Below are positions 38,620 through 52,277 of a stretch of 64,000 nt of DNA, in pieces. The position numbers and the translations under genes are program-made. Origin of the DNA: a virus. The stretch lies in the IMG/VR virus record IMGVR_UViG_3300005466_000026, positions 1 to 64,000 of that record. One strand, given 5' to 3'. Each line of letters begins with the position of its first letter. Within the stretch, counting starts at the first letter, position 1. A model generated the notes under the pieces. That model saw only the letters and a program-made list of their open reading frames with translations, did no database searches and was not told the origin of the DNA.

Positions 38620-40623
38620 CTATTTTGGAAGGTCAGCCCACGTGCCGGTCGCGGTTCCCCACGTCCGGCCGTACTCGGCGTCCACCATCATGGGAACCTC
38701 GAGAGAAACTATCTCGCGCATGATCTGCGTTATCTCGTTCCCTGTCTTCTCACTGGCCTGACTGAAGCCGAGCTCGTCGTGCATCTGGATGAGCGGTACG
38801 TGGCCAGCATCGTAGCACGCTCGCATGGCCATCTTGGTCTGCCGCGCCGCGCTGCCCTGAATGAGACCATTCATGGCCTTTCGACACTCGGCCCGCCGCA
38901 GTCTCTTGCCGTACCACGGATGGTCCTTGTCCCTCACCCGCTCGCGAGCCTCCTCGATCCGGCAGTAGCCCATCTTGATCTGGCCGCCGCTGCCCCATCC
39001 TCTGCGCCGCTCGTCCTCTGAGAGCCAAGTCGGCTCCCACATGTCGAAGTGAATTCGGGCTCCGTCTATCAGCCGTATGAACCCGGTGCGACTGGCCTTC
39101 TCCTGACACAGAGTGTTCAGCTGCTTGACGAACGGCATCTGCTCGTCGTACTGCGTCATTATCTTCTCGGCCTCCTCCATGCTCTTGTTGATCATGGAGG
39201 CGAACTTCTTCACGCCAGCGCCGTACGACTTCGCGAAATTCGTGTCCTTCGCTGGCTTGCGCGGCAGACCAGTCATGTCGGCGACCATGCTGTGAAAGTC
39301 GGTGCGCGGATCTGTTCTGTAGCGAGTCGCGGCCTCCAGCGCCTTCTTCAGCTTGTTGCGAACCGCGAAGTGCACTATCAGCCGGTACTCCTGCTGAGAG
39401 TAGTCCGCCGACATCCACGCCTCGCCCTCCTCGGGCAGGAACAGCCCCCGGATGAGCGTCGCCAGCTCCTCGTTCCGATGCGGCATCTGCTGCAGCGGGG
39501 GGTCGGAGTAGCTGAAGCGATAAGTGCGAGTGCCGCCCTCCTCGGACTTGAACTGATTGATGGAGGCGTGAAGCCTGCCGAGATGGGCGTAGTCTATGAT
39601 GTACGACTGAACGAACTTGTGCGCGGCCTCGTGATACTCCTTCGCCTTGACCAGCATGGGAGGGAGCCAGTGCGGCGAGTCCTTCATCCACTTCTTCTCG
39701 AAGCTGCCGCGTCCAGTACCGTCGCGCGGGAACTTGATCTTCAGCTTGGTGAATACGTCCGTCATCCAGCCGTTGGATCGCAGGTCGTCGATGTCGACGC
39801 CGTGTCCCAGCTTGGAGCTGATGTCGCGGAAGGTCTCCCTAGACGTCTCGATGCAGTGTGCCTTCACCTGCTCGGCGGCCTCTAGATCTACGCGAATGCC
39901 GCGCCTGCGCATGGCGTGGACCACCGGCAGGAGATCCATCTCGAGCTGGTACGCGTCTACTGTCTTCTCCTTCTCCATCAGCGGTCGCAGCTTGTGCGCC
40001 AGCTGGAGCGTGCGAACCGCGTCGGTCTCCGCGTACTCTCCCACGAACTTGGCCGGGAGCCGCCACATGTCCGTCTTCGGATCGATGCCGTAGGACGCCG
40101 CTGCGTCTCTGAGAACTCGCTCCTCCTTGCCCGGTAGTCCTTGCCACTCGCAGAGCGCGTCGAGATTGAACTCGAAGCGGTTCTCGTCTATCATGTTGGC
40201 CATGCACGTCGTGTCGTCCACCTGGGATGGACACCCGACGCCGAGATCTACGTCGCCCCATCCCACGTCGAACGGCGCGTTCTGCATCACGAAGCGGACG
40301 CCAGCCCTCTGATGGTCCTTCTCCCATCTGGCGATCTGGTCGGGCTGGAAGCACTCGGTGTCCGGATGCCTGATCGGCGCGTAGAAGGACTCGAAGACCT
40401 CACCCTTCTTCCACGCTGCGCTGACGCCTATCACGTAGCCAGCCTTCATCGCCCATCCTGGACCGCGCTCGGCCGCGAGGCCGTCGTCCTTGCACTCGCG
40501 GTCGAAGCCTATCTCCTTGCACCTGCGGAGATCAGGCAGCTCAGTCGGCGGCTCCCAGTCGCTGGTCGGCGTGAACAGCGGGTCCTGAAAGCCGCCGACG
40601 TGATAGTTCTTGCGCTTCTTCAA
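38620..40623 (-). CDS. polA: Family A DNA polymerase with 3'-5' exonuclease domain
   Basis: Exo motifs 'FDRE', 'NAPFD', 'YAETD'; motif A 'ADYSQQEYR', B 'RKPAKDTNFAKSYG', C 'HDEL'; TTG start overlapping the upstream stop. Confidence 0.95.
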   Translation of the reverse strand: MKKRKNYHVGGFQDPLFTPTSDWEPPTELPDLRRCKEIGFDRECKDDGLAAERGPGWAMKAGYVIGVSAAWKKGEVFESFYAPIRHPDTECFQPDQIARWEKDHQRAGVRFVMQNAPFDVGWGDVDLGVGCPSQVDDTTCMANMIDENRFEFNLDALCEWQGLPGKEERVLRDAAASYGIDPKTDMWRLPAKFVGEYAETDAVRTLQLAHKLRPLMEKEKTVDAYQLEMDLLPVVHAMRRRGIRVDLEAAEQVKAHCIETSRETFRDISSKLGHGVDIDDLRSNGWMTDVFTKLKIKFPRDGTGRGSFEKKWMKDSPHWLPPMLVKAKEYHEAAHKFVQSYIIDYAHLGRLHASINQFKSEEGGTRTYRFSYSDPPLQQMPHRNEELATLIRGLFLPEEGEAWMSADYSQQEYRLIVHFAVRNKLKKALEAATRYRTDPRTDFHSMVADMTGLPRKPAKDTNFAKSYGAGVKKFASMINKSMEEAEKIMTQYDEQMPFVKQLNTLCQEKASRTGFIRLIDGARIHFDMWEPTWLSEDERRRGWGSGGQIKMGYCRIEEARERVRDKDHPWYGKRLRRAECRKAMNGLIQGSAARQTKMAMRACYDAGHVPLIQMHDELGFSQASEKTGNEITQIMREIVSLEVPMMVDAEYGRTWGTATGTWADLPK

Positions 40624-41582
40624 GTCTCCGCCTCCCACGCGCGGTCTATCAGGTGATGCTTCTCGTCGCTCGGGTTCCACTCGTAGAGTGTAGCGACCCA
40701 CTCCTGCATCTTCTCCCACTCGTGACGATTGGCTTCTTCCTGAAACTTCGGGAAGTACTCTCTGGCGCCGAGAGGACACAGAGCGATCTTGACGACGTAC
40801 AAGTTACCCTGCGTCGGCTTGAAGTCGTACAGACTGCGGATGAGCGCGGGCGGCTCTCCGAACTTCGGATCGCACACGCTGGCCTCTAGAACCCACAGAG
40901 GACCGACTCTTCTGAACCACGTCTCGATGTGCATCTGCGTGAATACGTTGTTGATCACGTCGTCGGTCATCACCCACGGAGCCAGCGACTCGTGCTGCCC
41001 GCCGTCCTCAGGAGTACCGATGACTCTCTTGTCGTCGAACGGTGGTTTAGAGTACGCGTCCACCGACTCTACGCTGGTGTCGCTGTTCCAGACCTCGCTC
41101 ATCCTGCGAGCCTCCTCCGCAGTCAGCCGAGGCGCGACGATGATCTTCTTCTCTCGCTCCGGCAGCACCGCGCCGCGCGAGATCATCTCGGCCTCGATCA
41201 GCGTGGCGTAGCGCCGCAGGTCCCGGAGGCAGGCTAGAACGCTGCCGTCCTTGCCGCTCGGGTCGTCGTGTATCTTCTCGAAGACGTCCTCCTCGCTCAG
41301 CTTCTGCACCATCCACTCGGCCAGCTCGTGAGACAGCGTGTACTCCTTGTCCGGGTCCGTAGCTACGTCCTGAAGGTCCTCTCGGCTGAAGCTCTCCGGC
41401 CACGGCACGGAGGCCATCATGTTCAGCAGTCGGTCCATGTTCCTGCGAAACATGAACCACGCGCTTCGTCCACCGGCCATCTTCCAGCTTCCCTGATAGG
41501 TGGCCTCCTTCTCCCTGAGCAGCATGACGTCGCTGTCGGCGACGCGCTGCAGATGCTCCAGATGCTTCATGTCGTGGCTCAT
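40620..41582 (-). CDS. Nucleotide-modification-associated domain protein (Nmad1-like N-terminus)
   Basis: 'LREKEATYQGSWK..GG...FM..RNMDRL' and 'DLRRYATLIEAEM' resemble this family in hmU phages; adjacent to HD and TS-like genes. Confidence 0.55.
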   Translation of the reverse strand: MSHDMKHLEHLQRVADSDVMLLREKEATYQGSWKMAGGRSAWFMFRRNMDRLLNMMASVPWPESFSREDLQDVATDPDKEYTLSHELAEWMVQKLSEEDVFEKIHDDPSGKDGSVLACLRDLRRYATLIEAEMISRGAVLPEREKKIIVAPRLTAEEARRMSEVWNSDTSVESVDAYSKPPFDDKRVIGTPEDGGQHESLAPWVMTDDVINNVFTQMHIETWFRRVGPLWVLEASVCDPKFGEPPALIRSLYDFKPTQGNLYVVKIALCPLGAREYFPKFQEEANRHEWEKMQEWVATLYEWNPSDEKHHLIDRAWEAET

Positions 41583-42085
41583 GATATCTTCACTCCCTTC
41601 ATCCACTCGTCGACCTTGACGTACTGATACAGCTCGTCCGCCATCTTGAGTGCGATCTCTCTGGTGTCGCGCATGGGTATTGCGGCGTACTGATTACCCA
41701 TCATGAACTCGTGAAAGCAGAACTCGTACATCTCCAGCAGGTCGCAGATCTTGAACCGCTTCCACTCGTCCTCTCGCATCTGCGGCAGCTCGATCTGCTG
41801 ATGACCCAGACCCAGTCTCTCGGCCTCGTTGACAGCCGCGCCGTAGCCCTCGACTCGGTGCTTGCCGCCGAACGGAACGTCGCCGGCGAACTGCTCTCCC
41901 ATGTCGTGATGCAGGCAGTAGTAGAGAACCTCCGCGCGAGGAATACCGAACACCTCGCAGTAGATCTGCGCGACGCGACCCTGATGCTCGATCACGTTCG
42001 GCTTTCGCAGAGTCGGCCAAGTGTGCCATCGCGCCACCTGACCGGCTAGATGCCTTGATCTGTAGACTTGATCTCTAGTAACCAT
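41579..42085 (-). CDS. HD-domain 5'-deoxynucleotidase (YfbR-like)
   Basis: 'RW...EH', 'HHDMGE...GDVP...K', 'KICD.LE'. Confidence 0.85.
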   Translation of the reverse strand: MVTRDQVYRSRHLAGQVARWHTWPTLRKPNVIEHQGRVAQIYCEVFGIPRAEVLYYCLHHDMGEQFAGDVPFGGKHRVEGYGAAVNEAERLGLGHQQIELPQMREDEWKRFKICDLLEMYEFCFHEFMMGNQYAAIPMRDTREIALKMADELYQYVKVDEWMKGVKIS

Positions 42086-43237
42086 TCACATCCTCCTCGT
42101 CATCCACTCGGTGCACGCCACGCGCCAGTCCTCTGACTGGATCTCGTTGGCTGCAGCCACCGCTCTTATCTTCTGGCCGTCTCTCCACAGACGGTGCGAC
42201 CGAACAACCGGCTGAGCAACCTCGCAGAACCAGTCGTTCTCGCAATGTCTCAGAGGTACGTCGCTCTCTGTTCGGTAGCACTCGTCGTGCCACGACATGA
42301 ACTCGATGACGTCCTCGTCGGCCTTCTCTCCGACCGTGAATACCGGGCGCGTCTTCAGCCGAAGAGAGAAGTACCTGTCGTCGTGCAGGGCGCCGACTAT
42401 GCTGCTCTCCTCCTTGGCCATTCGCTTGGTCATAACGCCGAGCATCGTCTCGTACATGTGAAAGTTGTTCGAGAGAACGTACAGATCACCCATCGCCACG
42501 CCGACGCGAGCAGCCAGATACTCCTGCAGAAAGCTGAAGTGCACCGAGTTCGCGCCGTAGAGTCCCCAGACGATGTCGTTACTGCGGCAGCACACCGTCA
42601 TGTCCAGAACTCTGTTCCCCTTAGATATGACCACGCCGTCCGGCCAGTGATCTGGACCGTCTCCGCGCACTCTGAGATAGATGTGCGTGTTGCACGGTCT
42701 GTCCTTCCACTCGCCGGTGAGGTCCAGAGCGCCGACCTCCTGCTCGCCGACGTTGCCGTTACCCAGACTAACGGGCAGCGTGACGCTGGAGCAGTCCCAC
42801 ATCTGGATGACGCACTGACGCGTCCCCGGGTCCTTGATCAGCCGATCCACGACCGCTCCCAGCTGATCAAGTCCGAAGCGGAAGCGCCATCGGTGTCCGT
42901 ACGCTCCGTGGATCTGACCCCCGGCCTCCCAGTTCGCGCTCCCGCTGGCGCTCTCGGCGAACCGCTGGCCGAAGTCCGTCACGTAGTGGTTCAGCGTCTC
43001 GGCGTCGTCCCTGCCAGCCAGCATCCAGATGGCCTCCACGACGTGAAAGAATGGATTGGCATCTCTCACCTTGCTGAAGACCACGCGCTCCCACGGTCTC
43101 TTGAGGCGCGTGACGACGGGACCGGGGGCGACTAGGCAGGGACCCGCCCGAGTCTTCTCGAGCAGGCCGGAGTTGATTAGCAGGTGCACTCCCTTCGGGA
43201 GTGCCGCCGCTGAGTTCGTGGTGTCGATGACGTGCAT
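42086..43237 (-). CDS. Thymidylate synthase-fold enzyme, probable dUMP hydroxymethylase
   Basis: 'RDANPFFH..E..WMLAG', 'GAYGHRWR', catalytic 'PCN', 'RSNDIVWGLYGAN' (Asn at the specificity site means dUMP), 'NNFHMY'. Confidence 0.85.
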   Translation of the reverse strand: MHVIDTTNSAAALPKGVHLLINSGLLEKTRAGPCLVAPGPVVTRLKRPWERVVFSKVRDANPFFHVVEAIWMLAGRDDAETLNHYVTDFGQRFAESASGSANWEAGGQIHGAYGHRWRFRFGLDQLGAVVDRLIKDPGTRQCVIQMWDCSSVTLPVSLGNGNVGEQEVGALDLTGEWKDRPCNTHIYLRVRGDGPDHWPDGVVISKGNRVLDMTVCCRSNDIVWGLYGANSVHFSFLQEYLAARVGVAMGDLYVLSNNFHMYETMLGVMTKRMAKEESSIVGALHDDRYFSLRLKTRPVFTVGEKADEDVIEFMSWHDECYRTESDVPLRHCENDWFCEVAQPVVRSHRLWRDGQKIRAVAAANEIQSEDWRVACTEWMTRRM

Positions 43238-43253
43238 CTGTGGCTCCTGTCGG

Positions 43254-43532
43254 TCAGAACGGTATCTCGTCGTCGTCCACCTCGGTGCGGCGTTTGCCGC
43301 CTCCGAAGGACGGCTTGTCGTCGCCGCTGCCGCTGCGCTCTGCGCGCTCCTTCGGCTCGAACAGCATGATAACTATCTTGTTCTCCTTCTTGGGGTCCGG
43401 GACGGGGACGCTGTCCAGGTAGATAGTGATCTGTCCCTTGTCGTTCTGGTGAGCCTGTCCTACTCGGTGCCACCAGACACCGTCCTCGTTGTACTTAGGT
43501 CTCGGAGTCATCGCGTCGTATCTCTTCGGCAT
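43254..43532 (-). CDS. Small OB-fold-like protein with an SSB-type acidic tail
   Basis: 'W.RVG.A...KGQITIYLD..P'; C-terminus DDDEIPF. Confidence 0.6.
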   Translation of the reverse strand: MPKRYDAMTPRPKYNEDGVWWHRVGQAHQNDKGQITIYLDSVPVPDPKKENKIVIMLFEPKERAERSGSGDDKPSFGGGKRRTEVDDDEIPF

Positions 43533-43974
43533 GTGGCTGTCCCTTGAGATAGAGTTCTTCCAGCAGTATCGCCGCCAGACCCGCGCACTCTGGATCGTTG
43601 TACCAGCGGCACAATCCAGAGGGATGAGGTAGCTGCCGCCATGTGCATCCGTTCATCTGAACAGGGTGAATAAGTATCTTGGGGAGCTCCAGTGCACTGC
43701 GCACCTGCTCCCCGAACACGACAATGGTACGTCCGGCGTAGAGCGAAGGAAAACGCTCCGCCGCTGCCTTGGCCACCGGCCTGCTCCACGTTCTGGAGTT
43801 GATCAGGTTGAGCCGCTCGAAGCCGTCCATGTATCCCTTTCGCGTGACCTGCGGCTGGCGCGTCTGCAGAAGCCTCCAGAGACGGTAGCCGCTGCTCCCG
43901 GACGGGAACGGAGCGAGCGCGTACCTGGGATCCGCCGACAGCGGATTGTTCATTCCCAGCAGTACGGCCCTCAC
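43495..43974 (-). CDS. Uracil-DNA glycosylase superfamily protein
   Basis: 'LLGMNNP', 'SG.RL', 'IVVFG', 'LPHPSG...WYN'; GTG start overlapping the upstream stop. Confidence 0.65.
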   Translation of the reverse strand: MRAVLLGMNNPLSADPRYALAPFPSGSSGYRLWRLLQTRQPQVTRKGYMDGFERLNLINSRTWSRPVAKAAAERFPSLYAGRTIVVFGEQVRSALELPKILIHPVQMNGCTWRQLPHPSGLCRWYNDPECAGLAAILLEELYLKGQPHAEEIRRDDSET

Positions 43975-44519
43975 ACCAGATTGAGCCACCGAAACACCTT
44001 CGCGAACACCTGCTCGCGGGATCCTAAAAAGCATTCCACCTTCTCCTCTTGAAAGTCGTAGTAGTGTCTGCGACTCTTTCTGTGCAGCGCCTCGATAGTC
44101 TTCTCCTGGATCTTGTGACCGCGCTCACGAACGGCCTTGACGCAGTCCTCCAGAGGCTCGTCTATCAGGGCGACCGCTATCGGTAGTCCGGCGTCCCGAA
44201 GATCGAGCAGGTTCTGTGGCTTGTCGGTGAAGTTCTTTCCCTCGTAGAGCACGTTGCATCCGAGCTCCAGAGCGTGGATCCTCATCAGTTCGTACGCCAG
44301 CGGTAGACTAGGCAGCGTGTCCAGTCCGCCGTTCGCTATCTCGTAGTGTCCGGGAACGTACAGATGCTTCTCGTTGATGTTGTTGTGAGTCAGGATGTAT
44401 CCGGCAGGCTTCTGTCTGCCGGGATACTCCAGCTTGCGGCTCACCGGATAGAAGGACATGATCCTGCGGACCAGATGCGACTTGCCCGCGCCGTTCGTTC
44501 CCAGGAGACTGATTATCAT
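43971..44519 (-). CDS. P-loop nucleotide kinase of the 5-hmdU DNA kinase type
   Basis: Walker A 'GTNGAGKS', 'G.Y....GGLD', 'VLYEG', 'C...V.ER'. Confidence 0.7.
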   Translation of the reverse strand: MIISLLGTNGAGKSHLVRRIMSFYPVSRKLEYPGRQKPAGYILTHNNINEKHLYVPGHYEIANGGLDTLPSLPLAYELMRIHALELGCNVLYEGKNFTDKPQNLLDLRDAGLPIAVALIDEPLEDCVKAVRERGHKIQEKTIEALHRKSRRHYYDFQEEKVECFLGSREQVFAKVFRWLNLV

Positions 44520-44893
44520 GAGTGCTGATCCAGCTGACTGATCTCGTGCATGTTCGCCAGCGCGAACTCTCGACGGTCCTTCTTGTCCATGTCGTAGCAC
44601 ATCAGCAGCCACTGAGGAGTCTCGTACCACTCGCTGGTTCCCCACCGCACGCTGATGGGATTAACTGTTCGCCAGCTGAACGAGCCGCGATAGTTGACGT
44701 AGCTGAAGCGAAGAGTCTGCGTCGGCCGAGCCTCGTCCTGATGCATCTCCAGTATGCGAGCCAGCGCGGACAGATGATTGGTCGCCGAGGTGATCACCTC
44801 TCGAGCTCCCGTGTAGGACCATGCCGGATGCTCGCGACATAGCCTCTCGATGCTGGCGGCTAGATCTCTCAGGCTATGCTTCTGCGCTGGCAT
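44516..44893 (-). CDS. Stand-alone WYL-domain protein
   Basis: 'FSYVNYRG...RTVNP......W..PQWLL.CYD.DK..RREFAL'. Confidence 0.75.
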   Translation of the reverse strand: MPAQKHSLRDLAASIERLCREHPAWSYTGAREVITSATNHLSALARILEMHQDEARPTQTLRFSYVNYRGSFSWRTVNPISVRWGTSEWYETPQWLLMCYDMDKKDRREFALANMHEISQLDQHS

Positions 44894-45953
44894 CGTCGCC
44901 TCCTCTGGGTCCCTGATAGGCTGGCACCGGCTCGCGATCCTTCCACGGCAGACGCACCACCTTGTCGCGCTGACCATGCGAGAGAGCCTCCTGGATGTCT
45001 GCCGCCGTCTGCGCGTCGGGCTTGTGCAGCTTGCCCTGACCCATCAGGTCCGGAAGCAGGCCGACGCGATAGCTGCGATGATTGCACCCTCGGCACGGCG
45101 TGAAGTCGCGCTCGCCGCGTATCAGCTTCTCCCTGGCGGCTCCCATCGCGTCGCCCTGCCACAGCTCACCGATGTTGGTCTCGTTCGTGTTGCCCACGAA
45201 GTACGGACTGTCCCACGTGTTGCAGCACAGAGGAACGTTGCCGTCCCAGTGAATGGCGATCTGCCTGAACGGATGATGACACCGCTTGCCTGCCATACTG
45301 TCGTCGGGCGCGAAGGCGAGGCCAGCGTAGTTGAACACCTTGCCGTGATTGCCAATCTTCTTGTCGGCCGCCTGCGACGCGAGATCCCGTATCTTCACCA
45401 GCGTCCTCGTGCCCGGTCTTCGGCGCTTGTGCGGGTTCCCGCGAATGTCCCGCGGATAGTCGTAGTAGGTGAAGCCAAGAGGATGCTTGACGCCCGATCG
45501 CAGCTTGCCCTTCTCCTCGATGGCCGCGATGACCTTCTCCACGAACTTCACGTTCTCGTAGTCGTCCAGCCCGAGGACGCTGACGCCAGCGTCGAACAGC
45601 GCTGTCACGTTCACCACCGGACCCGGCTTCCTGAGTAGTCCCCCGGCGTTGGTCAGCATCGTGATGTGCGCCTTCGGCAGACACTCGCGAGTGGCCGCCA
45701 TCATCCCCACGTAGTCCGGATGCATGGTGGGCTCACCGCGCATGGCGAAGCCGACGCGACAGTTCCAGCCGAGAGCTCTCACGTCCGTGAGCGCCTTGAC
45801 CAGCGTCTCCTTCTTCATGAACTCGTATCCCTTGCCCTGCTTCTCCTGTATCGCGGAGACCGCGCAGAAAGGACAGTTTAGATTACAGCCGCGCGTCAGC
45901 TCCAGCGTGACGTTGAACGGGGGTTCCTGAGTACGGTATCTTCGGCGCGTCAT
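44874..45953 (-). CDS. Radical SAM enzyme with SPASM/twitch domain
   Basis: CxxxCxxC 'CNLNCPFC', 'GEP', 'TNA'; 'C..PF...I.WDG.V.LCC...GN...W', 'C..C'. Confidence 0.9.
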   Translation of the reverse strand: MTRRRYRTQEPPFNVTLELTRGCNLNCPFCAVSAIQEKQGKGYEFMKKETLVKALTDVRALGWNCRVGFAMRGEPTMHPDYVGMMAATRECLPKAHITMLTNAGGLLRKPGPVVNVTALFDAGVSVLGLDDYENVKFVEKVIAAIEEKGKLRSGVKHPLGFTYYDYPRDIRGNPHKRRRPGTRTLVKIRDLASQAADKKIGNHGKVFNYAGLAFAPDDSMAGKRCHHPFRQIAIHWDGNVPLCCNTWDSPYFVGNTNETNIGELWQGDAMGAAREKLIRGERDFTPCRGCNHRSYRVGLLPDLMGQGKLHKPDAQTAADIQEALSHGQRDKVVRLPWKDREPVPAYQGPRGGDDASAEA

Positions 45954-46900
45954 AGGTTCTTCTCCAGTCTGTTGTAGGCCTCTAGGACCTTGTCCTTCAG
46001 ATCTCGCTTCTCGCGAGCAGCCTTCAGCCACCATCGGTCCTGCTGCTCCTTCAGTATCTCTGCCCGTCTGGACATCCTGCGCTGAACGGAGGCCGCGTTG
46101 CTGACCAGGAAGTCTCCTGGGTCATAGCCTGCCTTGCGCAGCGTGTAGCCCGCCTCCTCCTGGAACACCATAGGAAGTCCGCCGCTGAGCATCTCGTAGA
46201 AGCGGTTGGGAGGCGAGTGGAAGTTGCTGTGCGACTTGGCGTCCTCGAGATAGAGGCCGAGGCCGTGCCGTCCCAGCTCGGAGTGCAGATCCTCTATCTT
46301 CTTGACGTGTCGCACGTTGGGTCCGTTGTACTTCTGCTCGAACCGACTTGTCGGCGAGGAGATGGTTATGGGCAGCGACGGACTGTTGAAGAACTTGTCG
46401 AACGCCTTGGTTCGGCCGGCTCGGAAGCTTCCGTAGTAGAAGAGGTCTCCGGCGTCCTTCTTATTCAGAGGCGGCTTCTCCTCCTCGAACCCCAGAGCGT
46501 TCCAGTTTATCAGCGAGCTGAGAGTCGTGAGCTTGCTCTCCCTCTCGCAGGTCGTCCAGAACTCCAGGTGCGACTTACCCGCCTTGCGTCGGTCGACGAA
46601 CGCCTTGCGGAACGGCGACGTAGCGTCGCCGTCGTTGATGGGCGGAACTATGGTGTAGTCCTGCTGTATCCAGACGATGCGCCTGACGCCGCGTATGGCG
46701 TGCGACAGCGGCTCTAGATGCTTGCAGAAGGCGTATGCCCCGTTCACTATGAAGAGGACGTCCGCCGTCTTGTAGAGCTCAATGGTCTCGTCGTCCACCA
46801 GCGGCAGGTCCAGCGTCTTGCTGAGAAAGAACGCCGCCTTGACCGACGCGACCATCGACTTCTCGCTGCACGCTATGAAGCTGAATATGGCTGCCTTCAC
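45950..46900 (-). CDS. T4 beta-glucosyltransferase-like DNA glycosyltransferase (GT-B)
   Basis: Colinear similarity with T4 BGT as recalled: MKAAI~MKIAI, DVLFIVN~DRLIVVN, DLFYYGSFRAGR~DVIYGGSFRSGQR, NRFYEMLSG.LPMVFQEE~LRVWETMASDAVMLIDEE, FLVSN~FYVNN. Confidence 0.75.
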   Translation of the reverse strand: MKAAIFSFIACSEKSMVASVKAAFFLSKTLDLPLVDDETIELYKTADVLFIVNGAYAFCKHLEPLSHAIRGVRRIVWIQQDYTIVPPINDGDATSPFRKAFVDRRKAGKSHLEFWTTCERESKLTTLSSLINWNALGFEEEKPPLNKKDAGDLFYYGSFRAGRTKAFDKFFNSPSLPITISSPTSRFEQKYNGPNVRHVKKIEDLHSELGRHGLGLYLEDAKSHSNFHSPPNRFYEMLSGGLPMVFQEEAGYTLRKAGYDPGDFLVSNAASVQRRMSRRAEILKEQQDRWWLKAAREKRDLKDKVLEAYNRLEKNL

Positions 46901-47106
46901 GTCTCACCTCTCTGCTTCTGGAAGTCCCTGACTTGGTTAATTATCCTCTGCTTCGCGCCCGAAGCCAAGTTCTGAATGGCTCTCTGCTGCCAGCACGTGG
47001 GATCTCGCGGCGGCAGATGCGAGACGTAGTCTGCGTAGCTGAGAACGTCTCCGTAGTCGGAGTCCGTGTCCCGAGCGATCTTGAGAAGCGGATAGCTGGT
47101 GCTCAT
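46897..47106 (-). CDS. Hypothetical protein
   Basis: 69 aa, coupled on both sides by 4-nt overlaps. Confidence 0.55.
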   Translation of the reverse strand: MSTSYPLLKIARDTDSDYGDVLSYADYVSHLPPRDPTCWQQRAIQNLASGAKQRIINQVRDFQKQRGET

Positions 47107-47717
47107 CTTCGGTCCATTCTCAGGACGTGCCAGCCTGCCTCGAAGATCGGCACGTCACCCGTGATCTTGAAGCCGCCGCGACTGATCATGGCCAGGAACT
47201 TCTTCCTGTCGTGCTCTGCCGTGTTGCTCTTCAGCACGTACTTGTCGCCGAAGCGTATCGTGCAGATGATGGACCTCTTCGCGAGCTTCATGAAGCCCCT
47301 CATGGCCGCCTGCATGGAGGGCTCGTCGATGAGGTCCAGGAACCGCACCGCCACGATCACGTCGGAGGGTGGCAAGCCCTCCAGCTTTCTGGCGTCGCCG
47401 ACCTGCAGGACGTAGGACGGCGGCACCTTCTTGTTCTTCAGCTTCCCCTTAGCTATGGCGAGCATCTGCTCCGAGGAGTCTACGCCCGTAACGGTGGCCA
47501 CGCTCAGCTGATGATACAGATAGAAGAACCTGCCGGTTCCCACCGGGCAATCGATCACGGTCTGCGGCCTCAGCTCGGTGAGCATGTCCTCGACCGCCGC
47601 GTTCTCCTCGCCCCATCGTATCTGCTTCTTGCGCTTGGCCTCGTAGCCGCTCGCCATCTTACCGCGATACTTTCTCGCGGTCCTGTCTCCCAGATTGAAT
47701 GCCGCAGATGGTCTCAT
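47103..47717 (-). CDS. Class I SAM-dependent methyltransferase (small-molecule type)
   Basis: 'VIDCPVGTGRF', 'GVDSSEQML', 'GDA', 'DVIVAVRFL'; no DPPY/NPPY or m5C 'PC' catalytic motif. Confidence 0.85.
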   Translation of the reverse strand: MRPSAAFNLGDRTARKYRGKMASGYEAKRKKQIRWGEENAAVEDMLTELRPQTVIDCPVGTGRFFYLYHQLSVATVTGVDSSEQMLAIAKGKLKNKKVPPSYVLQVGDARKLEGLPPSDVIVAVRFLDLIDEPSMQAAMRGFMKLAKRSIICTIRFGDKYVLKSNTAEHDRKKFLAMISRGGFKITGDVPIFEAGWHVLRMDRR

Positions 47718-47912
47718 CTATCTCCTCCCCTTGCTGTCGAAGACTACTCTTCCGGTTGATCTCTCGAAGCACGTGACCGCCGCGCTGCTGTTTCTAGCCA
47801 TCGCGCCCACGAACTCCTTGCAGGCTTCCTTGCTGTCGAACTTGACCTGCTTCGGCTCCTCGCATCCGAGGAAGCTGCAGAACGTTATGAGTACGAAGAA
47901 TGGACTTTCCAT
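47718..47912 (-). CDS. Small Cys-containing hypothetical protein
   Basis: Hydrophobic N-terminus, 'F.S.EAC' motif. Confidence 0.45.
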   Translation of the reverse strand: MESPFFVLITFCSFLGCEEPKQVKFDSKEACKEFVGAMARNSSAAVTCFERSTGRVVFDSKGRR

Positions 47913-48691
47913 GTCACTTCTCCTAATTGCTGCTTCATCTTCATGCCTTTATTCCACGGTTCTCGTCCTTTCATTGCGGCACTCATTTTTGCACGAGACT
48001 CAAGAGTGTGCTTCTTACCTTTTCTCTTCGACGGTTTTCCTTTCTGTGCTGCGCTCATCTTAGCTCGAGACTCAGCTGTATGTTTCCGACCTGCTATCCA
48101 GGGAATTTGACCCTTATGAACATCACTCATCTTTTTTCGGTGCTCAGGATTTTCCCACGCCTTCTTGATTAAATCTTTCAATATGATTGAGCCTCTCTCA
48201 CGATAATCAGGATCTTTCCATCTTTCTTTTGACTCTCTTCTCATTTTATTCGCTTGGCGCTCTCGATACTCTGGATCTTTCCACTGCTCTTTTAATTGCC
48301 TTGTCATAGAAGCACTCCTACGCTCACGAAATTCAGAGGACTCCCATAGCTTCACGACTGCTAGTCTCATTGCTTCACGTGAAGCTTCTCTGGAGATAGC
48401 GTATTGCCAGCTAGAGCATGGTCTGCCTTGAGTCATTCTACTGAGTGCACTCACCATCTGATGATGTGCTCTGCCATCAAGAATAAATTTAGTCAAGAGC
48501 CAGTGTGCCAGAAAATGTTCTCGATAGGTCAGTGAGACCAAGTTCTCTGAGCTGTTATACCAGCTCGGATCTCCGCCGAAACTTCTAGGGTTTCGGTGAT
48601 GTCTCTCGTAACGTACTCCTGGTTCGCGCTCGCGGCTCGCGGCGCGATCCATGATCTGCGTGTACCAGAGACGATACTTCTCAGTGCTCAC
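47885..48691 (-). mobile_element. Free-standing HNH homing endonuclease with NUMOD3 repeats
   Basis: 'YERHH..PRSFGG...ENLVSLT.REHFLAHWLL'; repeated 'GRKHTAESRAKMSAA', 'PWNKG'; markedly AT-rich. Confidence 0.85.
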
Positions 48692-49563
48692 GCGAACACT
48701 CCTCTTGGTCTGCCCTCGCCGTTCCTGACTCTCTCGTACTTGTCGAACTCGCAGAGCGTGTGCTCGACGTCTCGCATCTCCCACTTGGGCCACTGCCTCG
48801 GCCAGTTGCCCGGACTGCAACTGGCCGCGAGGATCAGCTGCATCTCCTCCAGCATCTTGGGCACCCTGACGCTCTTATCCTTCTTGTTCCTGCCGTGTAT
48901 CCGGTTCAGTCCGCGCCTCGCCCCCGGTCCCACGTTGCACCAGCTCATGATGTCGTTCGCGTCGCAGAGAAGGTTGGTGTGCCGCAGGTCCGTGACTATC
49001 TCGTACGAGTGAAATGTGCCGAGCCACGGCTGCATCTTGAACCAGAGCCAAGCCGTCTGCAGAGACATCTTCTCCTTAATCATCTGCTTGGCAGCGTCCC
49101 TCCATCCGCTCTCCTCTCTGAAGTTCTTCAGGATCTCCAGGATCCCGTCCAGCTTGGTGAAGCCGGGGGGAGAGGTTATGATGTACGCTCCGGTGACGTA
49201 GGGGCCGTCACCGCAGATCGCCTTGACGTCCTTCTTCATGCGTCGCAGGTCTCCGGTCTGCAGGAACACCGCGAAGGCGTTGTTCTTGTCGAAGTCCAGG
49301 TGATTGAAGATGGCCTCTCCCGTGCTGATCCTGTTGAACATGCGGAACACGACCGTGGCCAGTAGCACGTCCGGCGAGTCTCTCATCTCCTCCCTCACGT
49401 TGCGTCGGAACCAGTCAGTGGTCTTGTCCAGCTCCCGGAAGACGTTCGTGAACCTGTACTTCTGCAGGATCGGGTCCCTCGTCAGGGACGACTTCCCCTC
49501 CAGACGGTTCAGGTACACCTGATGTCGCTGCCTCGCGTAGTTGAAGAAGGACTGCATCGTCAT
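48688..49563 (-). CDS. aGPT-Pplase1 / 5-hmdU DNA kinase helical-domain protein
   Basis: 'DPILQKYRFTNVFRELDKTT', 'FRMFN', 'TGAYI', 'G.F..YE..TDL', 'GPGARRGL', 'VEH.LCEFDKY.R'. Confidence 0.85.
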   Translation of the reverse strand: MTMQSFFNYARQRHQVYLNRLEGKSSLTRDPILQKYRFTNVFRELDKTTDWFRRNVREEMRDSPDVLLATVVFRMFNRISTGEAIFNHLDFDKNNAFAVFLQTGDLRRMKKDVKAICGDGPYVTGAYIITSPPGFTKLDGILEILKNFREESGWRDAAKQMIKEKMSLQTAWLWFKMQPWLGTFHSYEIVTDLRHTNLLCDANDIMSWCNVGPGARRGLNRIHGRNKKDKSVRVPKMLEEMQLILAASCSPGNWPRQWPKWEMRDVEHTLCEFDKYERVRNGEGRPRGVFA

Positions 49564-50302
49564 GGCTCATCTCCAGTACATCTTTGAGTGGCTTAGAGTT
49601 CCAGAACTCGGCTACGTAGCGCTCCTCCTCGCCGAAGTCCTCCTGCCGCAGGATCCAGGACAGGTAGCTCCGGTCTATCTCCCTGACGTGCCTCCACTCC
49701 ATGCCCTTGTACTTGCCGAAGCCGATGATCCTCTGCAGATACGGAGTGTTGGTCAGCTGCACCAGCTCGTCCGCCGTCTTGAGCGTGAGCATTCGCAGGA
49801 CCAGCGTGGCGGTCGTCAGCGCGTCGGGCATCGCTCGGTGGGGAGGCCTGATGCAGTAGGGCACCGCGAGGTCCAGCCAGTATCGCAGCACCTGATTGGA
49901 GTGCCTCGGCGCGTCCGGCCACAGATGACGCGACGCCCTCCAGGTGCAGATCACCTTGACGCCCGGAGCCTCCTGCGTCAGCTTGTAGCCCGACTGCTCC
50001 AGCATCCGCAGATCGAAGTCCGCGTAGTGCATCGCCACGTACTGCGATGTCTTGATCTCCGTGAGGATGGACTTGTTGCGAGCCATCAGCTTGGCCATCG
50101 TGGGCGCGTGCTTCAGCTGATCGTCCGTGATGTGATGCACGGCTCTAGCTATCACGTTCATCGAACAGGTCGGCTTCACCAGCTGATCCCTTCCGAGTAT
50201 CATCTGCTGAGTCTCTGCGTCGACGGTCGCCACGGCCAGCTCGCACACCTGATCCTGCTCGCTGTCTCCCGTGGTCTCCGTGTCGACTACCGCTATCCGC
50301 AT
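49415..50302 (-). CDS. DEDDh 3'-5' exonuclease (exonuclease X-like)
   Basis: 'DTETTG', 'HYADFD', 'HRAMPD', C-terminal 'FGKYKG'. Confidence 0.85.
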   Translation of the reverse strand: MRIAVVDTETTGDSEQDQVCELAVATVDAETQQMILGRDQLVKPTCSMNVIARAVHHITDDQLKHAPTMAKLMARNKSILTEIKTSQYVAMHYADFDLRMLEQSGYKLTQEAPGVKVICTWRASRHLWPDAPRHSNQVLRYWLDLAVPYCIRPPHRAMPDALTTATLVLRMLTLKTADELVQLTNTPYLQRIIGFGKYKGMEWRHVREIDRSYLSWILRQEDFGEEERYVAEFWNSKPLKDVLEMSHDDAVLLQLREAATSGVPEPSGGEVVPDEGPDPAEVQVHERLPGAGQDH

Positions 50303-50775: not shown

Positions 50776-52277
50776 CGTCTAGCTGAGTCTCGCTGTGGCT
50801 CCACGATGGTCAGCTTCTCCCGAGCGCGAGTGGCGGCCACGTACCAGACGCGCATCTCGTCCTCGGGGTTCTTCTGCATCTCCGCGAACGTGCGGGACGC
50901 CATCTCCTTCAGCAGGATCACGTGGTCGGCCTCGCCGCCCTTCGCTCCGTGTATCGTGCTGAGCGTCACTCGCGGAACGGCGGAGAGCTTCTCGCCTCGC
51001 TGCCGCGCCGCGCGAATGTGGTTCTTGTCTCCGGCCGGGATGAGGTCCAGCGCCTCGTGCCACGGATCCTCCCTGAGAAGCCCGCCGCTCTTCCTGAGCC
51101 ACTTGAGATCGACCACCGCGTCGTCCTCGGCCTTCGGCAGCGTCTTGAAGCCGCGCTTCACGCCGCGCTCCAGCGTCATCAGGCCGTAGATCCTGCGCAC
51201 CGCCTCCACGTCCACCGTCTGTCCCTTGCGCAGCCGCTCCCAGTTCTGGATGGCGTCCAGAGTCTTTCTGCTGATGGACCAGTGCTCGTGCGGCAGTCGG
51301 CGATAGACGATACCCTGCCGCTTGAGCGTCGGCTCTATCTGCTCGTTGAGAACGTATGCGTTTCGCGCGAGTATCAGGATCTGCCCGCTGCCGCAGTCCA
51401 CGCGGTCGAAGGACAGCGCTCGCTCGATCACGCCGTCTGCTCCTCGCCGCGGCGACCACGCCTTCTCTCGTCGATGCTTCACCCTGGATATGATCTTGTT
51501 GGCCACCTCCTGCACGGTGATAGGCACGCGATAGCTCTGTCCCAGAACCTCCACGTCGCCCCTCATGTCTATGAGGTGATCGACGTCGGCGCCAGCCCAC
51601 CGATAGATGGCCTGATCGTCGTCGCCGGCTACCGCCACTCTGTCGCATCCCTCCGCCAGACTCTCGACGACGCGCCACTGCAGATGGCTGAGATCCTGGC
51701 TCTCGTCTACGAACAGCTCCTTGAGATTAAGCCGGATGCCGCTGCGCACGAACTCCATCAGCATGTCCGTGAAGTCCATCAGGTGATAGGCCTCCTTGAA
51801 CTCCTGCAGCTTCTTGCTGAACAGAAGCAGCTGAGACTTGTTCAAGTTGTCGTCGTCGATGTTGTGCAGCCTGTTCAGCGGGATCTCGCGGATGCGCGAC
51901 AGGTTCTCCATGAACATGAGCCGGTCGCCCAGACTGTATCCGGTGTAGAGTCCGTCCTCTGACATCCCTCGGCCGGTGATCTCCACTCCGGCGTACTTGG
52001 CGAACTCCTGCATTCTCGCGCCAGCCAGAACGTCGCTGCGCTTCATGCCGAGCTGCTTGAAGCACATCGAGTGAAGCGTGCTGAAGAACGGGAAGTCCTT
52101 CCTCGTCAGGTTGAACTTCTTGCAGGCACGCTCCATCGCCTCGCTCGCGGCCTTGACCGTGAAGCTGAAGTATCCCAGACGATCTGGCGGCACGCCGCGA
52201 GCCAGCGCGTCCTCGACGAAGCTGATCAGCTTGGTGGTCTTGCCGGTTCCCGGTGGTCCCAGAACAATGTCTGTCAT
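50760..52277 (-). CDS. Superfamily 1 (UvrD/Rep-like) helicase
   Basis: 'GPPGTGKT', 'DESQD', 'GDDDQAIY', 'QSYR', 'STIHGAKGGE', 'YVAATRA'. Confidence 0.92.
   Translation of the reverse strand: MTDIVLGPPGTGKTTKLISFVEDALARGVPPDRLGYFSFTVKAASEAMERACKKFNLTRKDFPFFSTLHSMCFKQLGMKRSDVLAGARMQEFAKYAGVEITGRGMSEDGLYTGYSLGDRLMFMENLSRIREIPLNRLHNIDDDNLNKSQLLLFSKKLQEFKEAYHLMDFTDMLMEFVRSGIRLNLKELFVDESQDLSHLQWRVVESLAEGCDRVAVAGDDDQAIYRWAGADVDHLIDMRGDVEVLGQSYRVPITVQEVANKIISRVKHRREKAWSPRRGADGVIERALSFDRVDCGSGQILILARNAYVLNEQIEPTLKRQGIVYRRLPHEHWSISRKTLDAIQNWERLRKGQTVDVEAVRRIYGLMTLERGVKRGFKTLPKAEDDAVVDLKWLRKSGGLLREDPWHEALDLIPAGDKNHIRAARQRGEKLSAVPRVTLSTIHGAKGGEADHVILLKEMASRTFAEMQKNPEDEMRVWYVAATRAREKLTIVEPQRDSARRCQWL

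Follow-up and report, generated by a model that had tools for sequence, protein, structure and literature searches.

This locus raises the question of which modified base a phage would make with an operon that joins genes of a thymidine hypermodification pathway to a glycosyltransferase (GT), a radical SAM enzyme, and a methyltransferase. The window analyzed is a 64,000-nt stretch of DNA (IMG/VR record IMGVR_UViG_3300005466_000026, positions 1 to 64,000) from an uncultured soil phage whose genome is 99% complete. Thymidine hypermodification clusters have been described in the Pseudomonas phages M6/YuA and PaMx11, and also in ViI, PhiW-14, and SP10 (Lee et al. 2018, 2021). We conclude that the operon is probably a sugar-type pathway of this kind. 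Judging from sequence and modeled structure, the phage most likely makes a base J-like glycosyl-hydroxymethyluracil (glycosyl-hmU) with a tailored sugar: hmU would take the place of thymine in DNA, then gain a sugar and have it remodeled. All computational tests run agree with the glycosylated hmU that an earlier note on this DNA had proposed, a product that we infer.

A coupled operon upstream of polA

Every operon gene (positions 40620-49563) lies on the minus strand, directly ahead of polA, in an order that runs from HMUDK_hel to polA (Table 1). The coupling described in the earlier note is real: a 4-nt start/stop overlap is possible at 8 of the 14 junctions from HMUDK_hel through polA, two junctions abut, and the largest gap is at most 17 nt. 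The ORFs are all intact and translationally coupled. In addition, the gene set is seen again, beyond chance, around the GT homologs of other IMG/VR loci; context was surveyed in 33 such loci, each holding a GT homolog.

Table 1. Genes of the operon, from HMUDK_hel to polA, with the evidence for each
Feature	Coordinates	Strand	Evidence
HMUDK_hel / aGPT-Pplase1, 291 aa	48688..49563	-	PF18723 E 3.2e-46
HNH/NUMOD3 homing endonuclease	47885..48691	-	NUMOD3 1.9e-18; phrog_655 8.2e-32
Small ORF, 64 aa	47718..47912	-	ORF list; no PHROG match
Class I SAM-dependent methyltransferase, 204 aa	47103..47717	-	PF13649 (Methyltransf_25) 1.7e-10
Small ORF, 69 aa	46897..47106	-	ATGA and GTGA overlaps, coupled on both sides
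T4 BGT-like GT-B glycosyltransferase, 316 aa	45950..46900	-	AF2 model and Foldseek
Radical SAM, twitch/SPASM auxiliary-cluster domain, 359 aa from coupled ATG	44874..45953	-	PF04055, PF13186
WYL-domain protein	44516..44893	-	PF13280 E 6.5e-5; phrog_3715 9.1e-20
P-loop kinase, 182 aa	43971..44519	-	Profile match to M6 gp54
UDG-superfamily-like protein, 159 aa	43495..43974	-	phrog_12275 1.2e-23; weak assignment
Small conserved ORF, 85-92 aa	43254..43532	-	phrog_18187 6.3e-9
TS-fold enzyme, 383 aa	42086..43237	-	PF00303 2.8e-15; phrog_5131 1.1e-81
HD-domain YfbR-like 5'-deoxynucleotidase, 168 aa	41579..42085	-	PF12917 2.9e-6, above cut-off
Conserved protein, 320 aa, between HD gene and polA	40620..41582	-	Position, homologs
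Family A DNA polymerase, operon end (context)	38620..40623	-	PF00476 6.4e-42

Nine of the ten gene products named in that note hold: the helical aGPT-Pplase1 protein, SAM methyltransferase, BGT-like GT-B enzyme, radical SAM/SPASM protein, WYL protein, P-loop kinase, TS-fold enzyme, and HD phosphatase, and, tentatively, the UDG-like protein. The last found no match in a Pfam search; it has an Atlas score of 0.95 to a cluster with UDG in 12% of members, and it is homologous to M6 gp48 (tblastn, 2.4e-8), whose own comparison with UDG (E 0.002) falls below the cut-off. The tenth label, "Nmad1-like" for the protein next to polA, was not confirmed: PF07659 was blank, nothing matched in Pfam, NCBIfam, or PHROG, and an Atlas score (0.78) offers the only lead. 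In 13 loci a homolog of this protein occupies the equivalent position.

The operon also holds a homing endonuclease and small ORFs of 64, 69, and 92 aa that the earlier note did not list. The endonuclease gene has its GTG start codon (48691) overlapping the stop codon of HMUDK_hel; its GC3 is 0.45, versus 0.74-0.87 in the adjoining genes, and only the near-identical loci L001 and L002 carry one among the 33. It is probably a mobile insertion outside the pathway. The 64-aa ORF may not be a gene. The 69-aa ORF and the WYL gene (start at 44893 or 44977; 23.3 bits, cut-off 21.8) also occur in L001 and L002 only, and the WYL protein is a candidate for an accessory or regulatory role. Homologs of the 92-aa ORF are found at L001, L010, and L012.

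Proposed hydroxymethyluracil supply, sugar transfer, and tailoring

The TS-fold enzyme carries the signature of a dUMP hydroxymethylase, with Cys146, an Asp at 143, Asp169, and Asn177 (E. coli numbering; diagnostic residues as given in sections 24 and 28 of PMC13326640). Asn177, Asp169, Cys146, and a non-hydrophobic residue 143 are common to the window enzyme, all 25 of its linked homologs, and M6 gp58, to which the window enzyme is 33% identical. The HD nucleotidase (27.5 bits, cut-off 25.9) has a homolog in M6 gp59, and the phage PolA is 30% identical to M6 gp62. No Tet_JBP gene is found in the genome, which leaves no dioxygenase route. In a first step, as residue signature and homology suggest, the TS-fold enzyme would make 5-hydroxymethyl-dUMP from dUMP before replication, the HD nucleotidase would help to bias the nucleotide pool, and 5-hmdU would replace T in DNA via PolA.

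The GT matched no Pfam family, PF09198 included, in a search in which T4 BGT reached PF09198 at 9.4e-98. When its AF2 model (pLDDT 93.7) was searched with Foldseek, T4 BGT entries took ranks 1-5, the top match being 1j39 (E 3.1e-10, TMq 0.68). Identity to T4 BGT is about 16%, and the local hhalign E value is 0.03. The hhalign mapping places D81 on D100, S158/R160/R163 on S189/R191/R195, and R233/E236 on R269/E272. D81, R160, R233, and E236 are invariant in 34/34 family sequences, and the catalytic Asp and four Arg/Glu positions aligned with BGT are kept in 33-34 of the 34; we take Arg191, Arg195, Arg269, and Glu272 of BGT to be UDP-binding positions. The family as a whole has 617 representatives at E<=1e-3. 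We propose that the GT is a DNA hmU glycosyltransferase. A second step is suggested by the enzyme's fold, by the catalytic residues that it keeps, and by its neighboring genes: with a host UDP-sugar as donor, it would place a hexose on the 5-CH2OH of hmU in polymeric DNA, yielding a base J-like glycosyl-hmU and filling the slot held by the amino acid:DNA transferase (ADDT) in M6, ViI, and PaMx11.

The radical SAM gene starts at an ATG (45953) that overlaps the GT stop. Among solved structures, its sequence comes closest to the sugar/cyclitol dehydrogenase BtrN (4m7s, E 7.5e-10), with an alignment that takes in both domains, from the CxxxCxxC core to the Cys-rich C-terminal domain. In the NCBIfam search all models stayed under their cut-offs, and the twitch/SPASM likeness to BtrN is generic. 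The methyltransferase is of a small-molecule type, with only weak UbiE/MenG-type NCBIfam matches, all under cut-off. Radical SAM homologs occur in 14 of the 33 loci and the methyltransferase in 10; methyltransferase homologs of 46-56% identity adjoin the GT in 8 further loci, and a different methyltransferase does so in L020. Because each of the two is found alone in some related loci, we regard them as independent, optional tailoring modules. In a third step, for which the indications are weaker, the BtrN-like enzyme might convert a hydroxyl of the sugar into a ketone, and the proposed role of the methyltransferase is to methylate the sugar.

The kinase, HMUDK_hel, and alternative readings

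Thymidine hypermodification genes stand beside the GT in 31/33 loci, with HMUDK_hel in 26, a TS-like gene in 26, and the kinase in 20 (tblastn E<=1e-5) or 23 (E<=1e-3). The other two have no T-pathway gene: at L023 no linked pathway gene was detected, and L030 has a cytosine-type set. In one metagenomic protein (P0334) the GT is fused to HMUDK_hel, and in L024 a PfkB sugar kinase and a second glycosyltransferase, TAGT, lie on either side of it. ADDT (aGPT-Pplase2, PF18724) is absent from the whole 99%-complete genome and from 9/9 other GT-carrying genomes (all ten are 94-100% complete) in a search that recovered M6 gp51 at 2.3e-48; the genome also holds no PALP-type PLP enzyme. The earlier note had seen no aGPT-Pplase2 and no PLP enzyme in the window; for aGPT-Pplase2 and for PLP enzymes of the PALP type, the absence extends to the whole genome. 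The note did not recognize the combination from characterized phages. Our literature searches found no chemical description of such a system; the combination is not unique, being present in dozens of viral contigs.

Profile comparison identifies the kinase as a homolog, though a divergent one, of gp54, the validated 5-hmdU DNA kinase of M6. The two profiles align over their full length (hhalign probability 98.9, E 1.2e-17), and gp54 is the sole match of the kinase HMM (A2) in the M6 genome (HMMER, 4.1e-17). The window kinase matched no Pfam kinase family and did not reach PF18748, which M6 gp54 reaches at 7.7e-18. In four complete genomes that encode GT, HMUDK_hel, and TS, no kinase was picked up by profile A2, which does detect gp54; the GT does not require the kinase. 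A GT that worked on hmU directly would leave the kinase with no assigned role. HMUDK_hel and aGPT-Pplase1 are, in JGI usage, two names for one Pfam family, PF18723; the protein is single copy in the genome, 35% identical to M6 gp55, and has an HhH-glycosylase-like helical fold (AF2 pLDDT 93.5). In a fourth step, the kinase homolog and HMUDK_hel would also act on hmU, and our guess, by analogy, is that they would process hmU that is not glycosylated. In known phages, leftover hmU ends as T. Another possible role of HMUDK_hel would be to present hmU to the enzyme, whichever it is, that modifies its hydroxyl.

We consider it unlikely that HMUDK_hel, and not the GT, performs the primary group transfer, after the kinase has made 5-phosphomethyl-dU (5-PmdU). 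The conserved Cys of HMUDK_hel, a paralog of the ADDT enzymes, would attack C6 and add some nucleophile, or a hydride giving T, after which the GT would glycosylate either the group so attached or a different fraction of the hmU. A Cys271-Glu272 pair is indeed invariant in 34/34 sequences (alignment A3), and a weak hhalign match (E 0.13, 19 columns) sets Cys271 on the catalytic Cys247 of M6 gp51. In PaMx11 PUGT, Cys247 attacks C6 and Glu243 and Thr244 bind a metal, as described in PMC11472151. PUGT (8z2n_B) also ranks first in VIA-align (Z 11.3, rmsd 4.0, 223 residues aligned), although Z values of about 11 are also seen among unrelated helical proteins, according to the tool's own note, and a Foldseek search of the PDB gave nothing at E<=1e-3. 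With the ADDT enzyme PUGT as structurally nearest and a Cys-Glu pair in place, the absence of ADDT leaves room for a transferase-like activity, and Table 3 of the 2018 paper (PMC5889632) lists for SP10 a single aG/PT-PPlase, fused to a kinase. However, the M6 homolog gp55 was not needed to form N-alpha-GlyT in vitro (PMC8989533), and HMUDK_hel accompanies the GT in the four genomes without a detectable kinase and therefore does not depend on 5-PmdU everywhere.

It is improbable that the cluster is only partly functional, with plain hmU or T in virion DNA and the GT, radical SAM enzyme, and methyltransferase repurposed or decaying. The operon is interrupted by a homing endonuclease, but its ORFs are intact and coupled, catalytic residues are kept across the 617-representative GT family, and L010-L012 keep the whole set of methyltransferase, GT, radical SAM, kinase, UDG-like, and TS genes at about 50% identity. 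Just as hard to sustain, if not more so, is a phosphate-linked sugar, in which the kinase would phosphorylate hmU and the GT would use the phosphate oxygen as acceptor, giving an hmU-phosphodiester-sugar. Kinase and GT do occur together at 20-23 of the 33 loci, and SP-15 has phosphate-linked sugars on hypermodified thymine, with phosphate-containing glycosylated T in YerA41 and Carin-5, as described in PMC12686479. Against this, the GT is found without the kinase in the four complete genomes, and the active site, which resembles that of BGT and has a conserved Asp as base, suits a hydroxyl acceptor. Moreover, we know of no precedent for a DNA phosphate as the acceptor of a GT-B enzyme.

Very improbable, finally, is a GT target other than a thymine-derived base, either a cytosine derivative of the kind found in T4 or RB69 (hmC or 5-hydroxycytosine) or something other than DNA. 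In its favor, hmC is the substrate of T4 BGT, TS homologs may be 5-hydroxy-dCMP synthases according to PMC13326640, and at L030 a member of the GT family is linked both to a dCMP-type synthase (Asp177) and to a C5 cytosine methylase, so the family is not intrinsically uracil-specific. Against it, the window synthase and its 25 linked homologs have Asn177 and Asp169, the genes have homologs in the M6 T-modification module and are syntenic with it, and the GT adjoins or is fused to HMUDK_hel.

Comparison with known systems

One of the closest known systems is that of M6. Both clusters have a similar gene order upstream of polA and share a dUMP hydroxymethylase, a 5-hmdU DNA kinase (the window kinase falling under PF18748 and M6 gp54 above it), HMUDK_hel, an HD nucleotidase, a UDG-like protein, and PolA. 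The window has no ADDT, no PALP-type PLP enzyme, and no radical SAM enzyme of the SPL type (the type of M6 gp53 in PMC8989533), and has the BGT-like GT, BtrN-like radical SAM enzyme, and methyltransferase in their place. Pelagiphages carry TS, aGPT-Pplase1, 5'-deoxynucleotidase, and putative glucosyltransferase genes close to PolA (PMC9599517). These "partner AMGs" of HTVC023P-type pelagiphages follow, by description, the same neighborhood idea; the available text of that paper gives annotation only, with the GT not analyzed and without a radical SAM enzyme, methyltransferase, or kinase. SP-15, YerA41, and Carin-5 likewise have glycosylated thymine derivatives and GT genes close to PolA, but, as described in PMC12686479, their sugars sit on a (di)hydroxypentyl linker with phosphate, and their gene sets differ, with NDP-sugar synthesis genes, a deacetylase, and other GTs.

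Among single enzymes, the radical SAM protein aligns with BtrN, the butirosin 2-deoxy-scyllo-inosamine dehydrogenase (PDB 4M7S/4M7T), over the CxxxCxxC motif and auxiliary-cluster Cys. Overall similarity is low, the window enzyme is about 90 residues longer, and its substrate would be a DNA-linked or UDP-linked sugar. The GT resembles T4 BGT (PDB 1J39/1BGT; PF09198) in its GT-B fold, best structural match, similar length, the equivalent of Asp100, and retained Ser189, Arg191, Arg195, Arg269, and Glu272 positions, and its gene lies near a TS-fold hydroxymethylase, as T4 b-gt adjoins gene 42. It differs in its low identity, in missing PF09198, and in being linked to a dUMP-type and not a dCMP-type hydroxymethylase, and its acceptor is therefore probably hmU rather than hmC.

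Base J is the beta-D-glucosyl-hydroxymethyluracil of kinetoplastids, and the predicted first product of the window pathway would also be a hexose O-linked to hmU in DNA. Kinetoplastid hmU comes from a JBP dioxygenase, whereas the hmU of the window would come from a pre-replicative TS-fold enzyme. The transferases appear to differ as well: Pyle et al. matched GT-A-fold phage GTs to the putative T. cruzi JGT (bioRxiv 2023.12.21.572611), so JGT looks GT-A-like, whereas the window transferase is GT-B. In contrast to base J, the sugar of the window product is predicted to undergo extra tailoring.

Layout of the operon and its gene calls

The viral record is 85,774 bp long with a CheckV completeness of 99%, and the window is its first 64 kb. 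Within it we found a minus-strand gene run that continues without interruption from 49563 down to 38620 and ends with the gene for a family A DNA polymerase. A start codon overlapping the preceding stop by 4 nt is possible at 8 of the 14 junctions, the genes abut at another 2, and neighboring genes are never more than 17 nt apart. The operon claimed by the earlier note is thus borne out by the gene run, the coupling and the family matches. Its gene list was right overall, with the homing endonuclease and the small ORFs left out and two labels weak or unsupported: "UDG-like" for the 159-aa protein draws on weak leads only, among them homology to gp48 of the thymidine-hypermodifying Pseudomonas phage M6, and "Nmad1-like" for the 320-aa protein found no support in Pfam, NCBIfam, PHROGs or PF07659, with an Atlas score of only 0.78.

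Genes of the operon in transcription order, followed by two neighboring ORFs of the window
Gene	Product	Coordinates	Strand	Family match or remark
1	HMUDK_hel (aGPT-Pplase1)	48688-49563	-	PF18723, E 3.2e-46
2	HNH/NUMOD3 homing endonuclease	47885-48691	-	
3	64-aa ORF		-	
4	class I SAM methyltransferase		-	
5	69-aa ORF		-	
6	316-aa protein (GT)	45950-46900	-	no Pfam match
7	radical SAM/SPASM enzyme (rSAM)	44874-45953	-	PF04055 + PF13186
8	WYL protein		-	
9	P-loop protein		-	
10	159-aa protein		-	
11	92-aa ORF		-	
12	thymidylate-synthase-fold enzyme (TS)	42086-43237	-	
13	HD/YfbR-like 5'-deoxynucleotidase		-	
14	320-aa protein	40620-41582	-	no family assignment
15	family A DNA polymerase		-	run ends at 38620
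	RNase T-type exonuclease ORF	49415-50302	-	
	138-aa ORF	52274-52690	-	phrog_8593 + phrog_14118

The homing endonuclease gene sits between those for HMUDK_hel and the methyltransferase, its GTG start overlapping the HMUDK_hel stop. Its GC3 is 0.45, against 0.74-0.87 in the adjoining genes, and among the 33 related loci described below it is confined to the near-identical pair L001 and L002. On account of the low GC3 and this restriction to two near-identical loci, it looks like a mobile insertion. The L002 copy is 86% identical, compared with about 97% for the flanking genes.

Upstream, the exonuclease ORF overlaps that of HMUDK_hel by 148 nt (49415-49563), and its tail past about residue 245 is of low complexity; the overlap is either a true long one or a frame problem. 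The 138-aa ORF ends 4 nt inside the gene of a UvrD-type helicase, if the latter begins, as is likely, at ATG 52277; it had no match in Pfam or in a sequence search of the PDB. A Pfam scan of ten other ORFs of the window found no genes of nucleotide metabolism. All or part of the stretch is present, as contigs, in 23 rows of metagenome runs (rhizosphere or soil, 2016-2018). Eight of these rows are possible sources of the DNA, and no RNA run is listed among them. By megablast, the region matched INPHARED over no more than 73 nt, which lie within the homing endonuclease.

A probable glycosyltransferase family with a predicted fold closest to T4 BGT

The 316-aa protein (GT), the proposed DNA hmU glycosyltransferase, matches no Pfam family at E ≤ 0.1, including PF09198, on which the T4 BGT control scores 9.4e-98. 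PDB sequences likewise gave no meaningful match for the GT, HMUDK_hel or the kinase, and generic matches only for the methyltransferase. The AlphaFold (AF2) model of the GT, built on a 39-sequence alignment, has a pLDDT of 93.7, and a Foldseek search of the PDB with this model placed T4 BGT entries at ranks 1-5 and 8 (E 3.1e-10 to 1.4e-7; TMq 0.65-0.68), with 1j39 at the top (E 3.1e-10, TMq 0.68, identity 16%).

Alignment of the GT profile with T4 BGT (sequence from the T4 record) by hhalign gave a weak local E of 0.03 and a global E of 3.8e-5. Local and global alignments agree in placing S158, R160 and R163 of the GT on S189, R191 and R195 of BGT, and R233 and E236 on R269 and E272. We take these five BGT residues (Ser189, Arg191, Arg195, Arg269 and Glu272) to be UDP-binding positions. 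Across the 34 GT family sequences, which extend down to 34% identity, D81, R160, R233 and E236 are kept without exception (34/34), R163 in 33, and S158 in 25, with Ala in the other 9. D81 falls on BGT D100 in the global alignment only, where the N-terminal domain is aligned with low confidence; D100 is described as the catalytic residue of T4 BGT by Pyle et al. (bioRxiv 2023.12.21.572611) and also appears in the title of PDB 1nzd. Together, the model and the alignments predict that the GT works like BGT, yet it forms a separate sequence family.

That family comprises 617 representatives at E ≤ 1e-3 in an HMM search of 1.84 billion cluster representatives, and clustering at 90% leaves 285 relatives of the GT, every one of them unnamed and free of Pfam domains. 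Close homologs are absent from the cultured phages of INPHARED, in which the best identity is 25-28% in 7 records, including those of coliphages IME392 and EP_H11. In Escherichia phage IME392 (locus L043, MH719082 26726-43718), the homolog (25% identity) is part of a gene block that also encodes PolA, a helicase, a thymidylate synthase homolog and a BCCT-family transporter, besides several hypothetical proteins. No GT relative was found in prokaryotes in a scan of one genome per each of 185,579 species, which, being pattern-based, is weak evidence of absence.

A neighborhood search yielded 33 IMG/VR loci that encode a homolog 34-97% identical to the GT. By tblastn at E ≤ 1e-5, HMUDK_hel and the TS-like gene are each linked to the GT in 26 of the 33, the kinase in 20 (23 at E ≤ 1e-3), the HD gene in 17, rSAM in 14 and the methyltransferase in 10; many of the absences fall at truncated contig ends. 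One locus (L023) had no detectable linked pathway gene. A Pfam scan revealed an extra rSAM/SPASM gene in L016 and an extra methyltransferase in L020. As rSAM and the methyltransferase are each found without the other among the related loci, they appear to behave as independent tailoring modules. In a complete viral genome of 95.6 kb (L024:9105-12869), the GT is flanked by a PfkB sugar kinase (7.5e-33), the glycosyltransferase TAGT (PF20691, 1.3e-7) and a kinase homolog; according to PMC13390438, TAGT probably attaches the second glucose in phages of the T6 type. From this gene set, the DNA may carry a glycan that is phosphorylated or made of two sugars, and the presence of PfkB and TAGT beside the GT supports the building of a glycan on DNA.

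Enzymes predicted to make and handle hmU

According to PMC13326640, Asn177 in TS homologs (E. coli numbering) selects for dUMP and Asp177 for dCMP, position 143 is a bulky Leu in enzymes that form methyl products but acidic in those that form hydroxymethyl products, and 5-hydroxy-dCMP synthases are marked by Asp169Asn. We aligned the window TS with E. coli ThyA, T4 gp42, M6 gp58 (a dUMP hydroxymethylase) and 25 homologs from related loci. The window enzyme has Cys146, Asp143, Asp169 and Asn177, a set identical to that of M6 gp58. All 25 linked homologs share Cys146, Asp169 and Asn177, and position 143 is Asp in 22 of them and Thr in 3. Judged by these residues, the window TS carries the signature of a dUMP hydroxymethylase (Asn177 with a non-hydrophobic residue at 143). 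Since no Tet_JBP dioxygenase (PF12851) is matched anywhere in the genome, hmU would arise before replication.

We rejected a cytosine-type pathway (hmC or 5-hydroxycytosine) for the window on account of Asn177 and Asp169 of the synthase. Elsewhere in the GT family, one member (L030:3028-7688) is accompanied by a TS homolog with Asp177, and DUF4254, an AAA protein and a C5 cytosine DNA methylase are encoded beside it. Judged by this gene content, the GT family also occurs in a cytosine-type setting, so that the acceptor base would depend on the surrounding genes rather than on membership of the GT family.

We compared the operon with the M6 region by tblastn. HMUDK_hel matches gp55 (35% identity, 1.6e-42) and the TS-like enzyme gp58 (33% identity, 2e-59), and homologs of gp59 (HD), gp48 (UDG-like) and gp62 (PolA) are also present in the window. 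The P-loop protein is 25% identical (3.8e-5) to gp54, a validated 5-hmdU DNA kinase (PMC8989533). A profile of P-loop homologs (20 sequences from related loci, 18 used) matched gp54 over its full length (hhalign probability 98.9, E 1.2e-17), and an HMM from a separate 17-sequence alignment, profile A2, had gp54 as its sole match in the whole M6 genome (4.1e-17). The window kinase did not match Pfam PF18748 at E ≤ 10, against 7.7e-18 for the M6 gp54 control. Because PF18748 was not reached despite the profile match to gp54, we class the P-loop protein as a divergent homolog of 5-hmdU DNA kinase. For kinase detection phrog_800 was too unspecific, being positive in 14 of 14 control genomes, and profile A2 was used instead.

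With profile A2, no kinase was detectable in four complete or near-complete genomes (G001-G004, the records of L026, L031, L033 and L032), which carry a compact module of GT, HMUDK_hel and a dUMP-type TS. The presence of the GT in these kinase-less genomes argues that it would not depend on phosphorylation, and their gene content fits direct O-glycosylation of hmU.

The amino acid:DNA transferase (ADDT, aGPT-Pplase2) and the PLP enzyme that the earlier note did not see in the window are missing from the 99%-complete genome as well: PF18724 had no match at E ≤ 1, compared with 2.3e-48 for the M6 gp51 control, and there is no PALP-type PLP enzyme. Among the operon ORFs we saw no PLP decarboxylase, flavin lyase or acetyltransferase. 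ADDT (PF18724) is also absent from nine further GT-carrying viral genomes, which are 94-100% complete.

The best solved relative of rSAM by sequence is BtrN (E 7.5e-10); the aligned region takes in both the CxxxCxxC core and the Cys-rich auxiliary 4Fe-4S (twitch) domain at the C terminus, and the Cys residues correspond. The substrate of BtrN is an aminocyclitol, which the enzyme oxidises at a secondary alcohol. By analogy, rSAM may oxidise a sugar hydroxyl, either on DNA or on the UDP-sugar donor. We infer this with modest confidence because no curated NCBIfam model was reached; 31 models match weakly, and the 25 listed all lie far below cut-off.

HMUDK_hel belongs to a family with 2933 relatives at E ≤ 1e-5 for which, to our knowledge, no function has been known since 2013. 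It is kept in the four kinase-less genomes, its gene often overlapping that of the GT. A metagenomic protein of 634 aa (P0334) fuses the two, with GT at residues 16-317 (hhalign E 5.3e-43) and HMUDK_hel at residues 347-599 (Pfam 1.3e-8, 35 bits). This was the sole GT fusion among the best 150 of 617 HMM-search matches, so further fusions may exist; a word-based search for longer GT forms found none. The HMUDK_hel model (pLDDT 93.5) had no significant match in Foldseek. VIA-align ranked PUGT, the ADDT enzyme of PaMx11, first (Z 11.3, rmsd 4.0, 223 residues aligned), followed by DUF2419 and HhH glycosylases (Z 9-10), although the tool warns that Z values of such size also occur among unrelated helical proteins. 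A Cys271-Glu272 pair is invariant in the family, and in a weak alignment Cys271 falls on Cys247, described as the catalytic residue of ADDT (PaMx11 PUGT, PMC11472151). M6 gp55 is reported not to be needed for glycine transfer in vitro (PMC8989533), and in SP10 an HMUDK_hel-type protein is fused to the kinase (PMC5889632). HMUDK_hel could be a catalytic ADDT paralog or a handler of hmU for a partner enzyme.

A predicted sugar branch and its relation to known systems

All biochemically solved pathways of thymine hypermodification from hmU known to us proceed by phosphorylation, after which an ADDT enzyme adds an amino acid or polyamine. A third branch, predicted to be a sugar branch with a BGT-like transferase in place of ADDT, is suggested by the operon and its numerous relatives; the sugar-type hmU pathway that the earlier note had read from the sequence is in this sense supported, as a prediction. 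The strategy, pre-replicative hmU followed by post-replicative decoration with a known enzyme fold, is a familiar one; the combination and the predicted product are not known to have been characterised chemically. More specifically, and very tentatively, the base in virion DNA might be one not described before, namely hmU O-glycosylated on the DNA polymer, its DNA-bound sugar oxidised by rSAM and then methylated, with HMUDK_hel as a general hmU-handling partner of whichever enzyme modifies the 5-CH2OH; we consider this full version rather unlikely. Such a general role of HMUDK_hel would account for the kinase fusion in SP10, the GT fusion in P0334 and its retention in kinase-less genomes.

If the prediction is true, the phage would have a bacterial-virus equivalent of base J, with a separate enzymatic origin, and a radical SAM enzyme and a methyltransferase that act on a DNA-bound sugar. 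It would also provide new substrates for the study of restriction evasion and modification-dependent defence, and new enzymes to label hmU in DNA. The operon further offers a route towards the function of the widespread HMUDK_hel/aGPT-Pplase1 family.

The idea of a sugar branch has partial precedent in print. Pelagiphages are described as carrying TS, aG/PT-PPlase1, 5'-deoxynucleotidase and a putative glucosyltransferase near PolA (PMC9599517), GT-B genes as often lying close to TS homologs (Pyle et al., bioRxiv 2023.12.21.572611), and T-dioxygenases as linked with GTs (PMC13229309). Sugar-bearing thymines of other chemistry are reported in SP-15, YerA41 and Carin-5 (PMC12686479). Our literature searches met with no phage in which glycosylated hmU is described chemically; contigs with a cluster of this kind may already appear in PMC8989533 (Figure 2 and supplements) and in the supplements to Pyle et al.

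Compared with T4 BGT, the window GT has the two-domain GT-B fold, the catalytic Asp and the Arg/Glu positions in common, whereas PF09198 is matched by T4 BGT only. In the base J pathway (JBP and JGT), which leads to beta-D-glucosyl-hmU, thymine is hydroxylated in DNA by a TET/JBP dioxygenase, whereas the window genome is without a PF12851 match. The M6-type system (Lee et al.) and the window share HMUDK_hel and the dUMP hydroxymethylase signature, but the window genome is without ADDT and PALP. Finally, M6 carries ADDT (gp51), a PLP enzyme (gp52) and an SPL-like rSAM (gp53) in the interval between its replication genes and its kinase gene; in the window phage, that position is taken by the methyltransferase, the GT and an rSAM of another kind.
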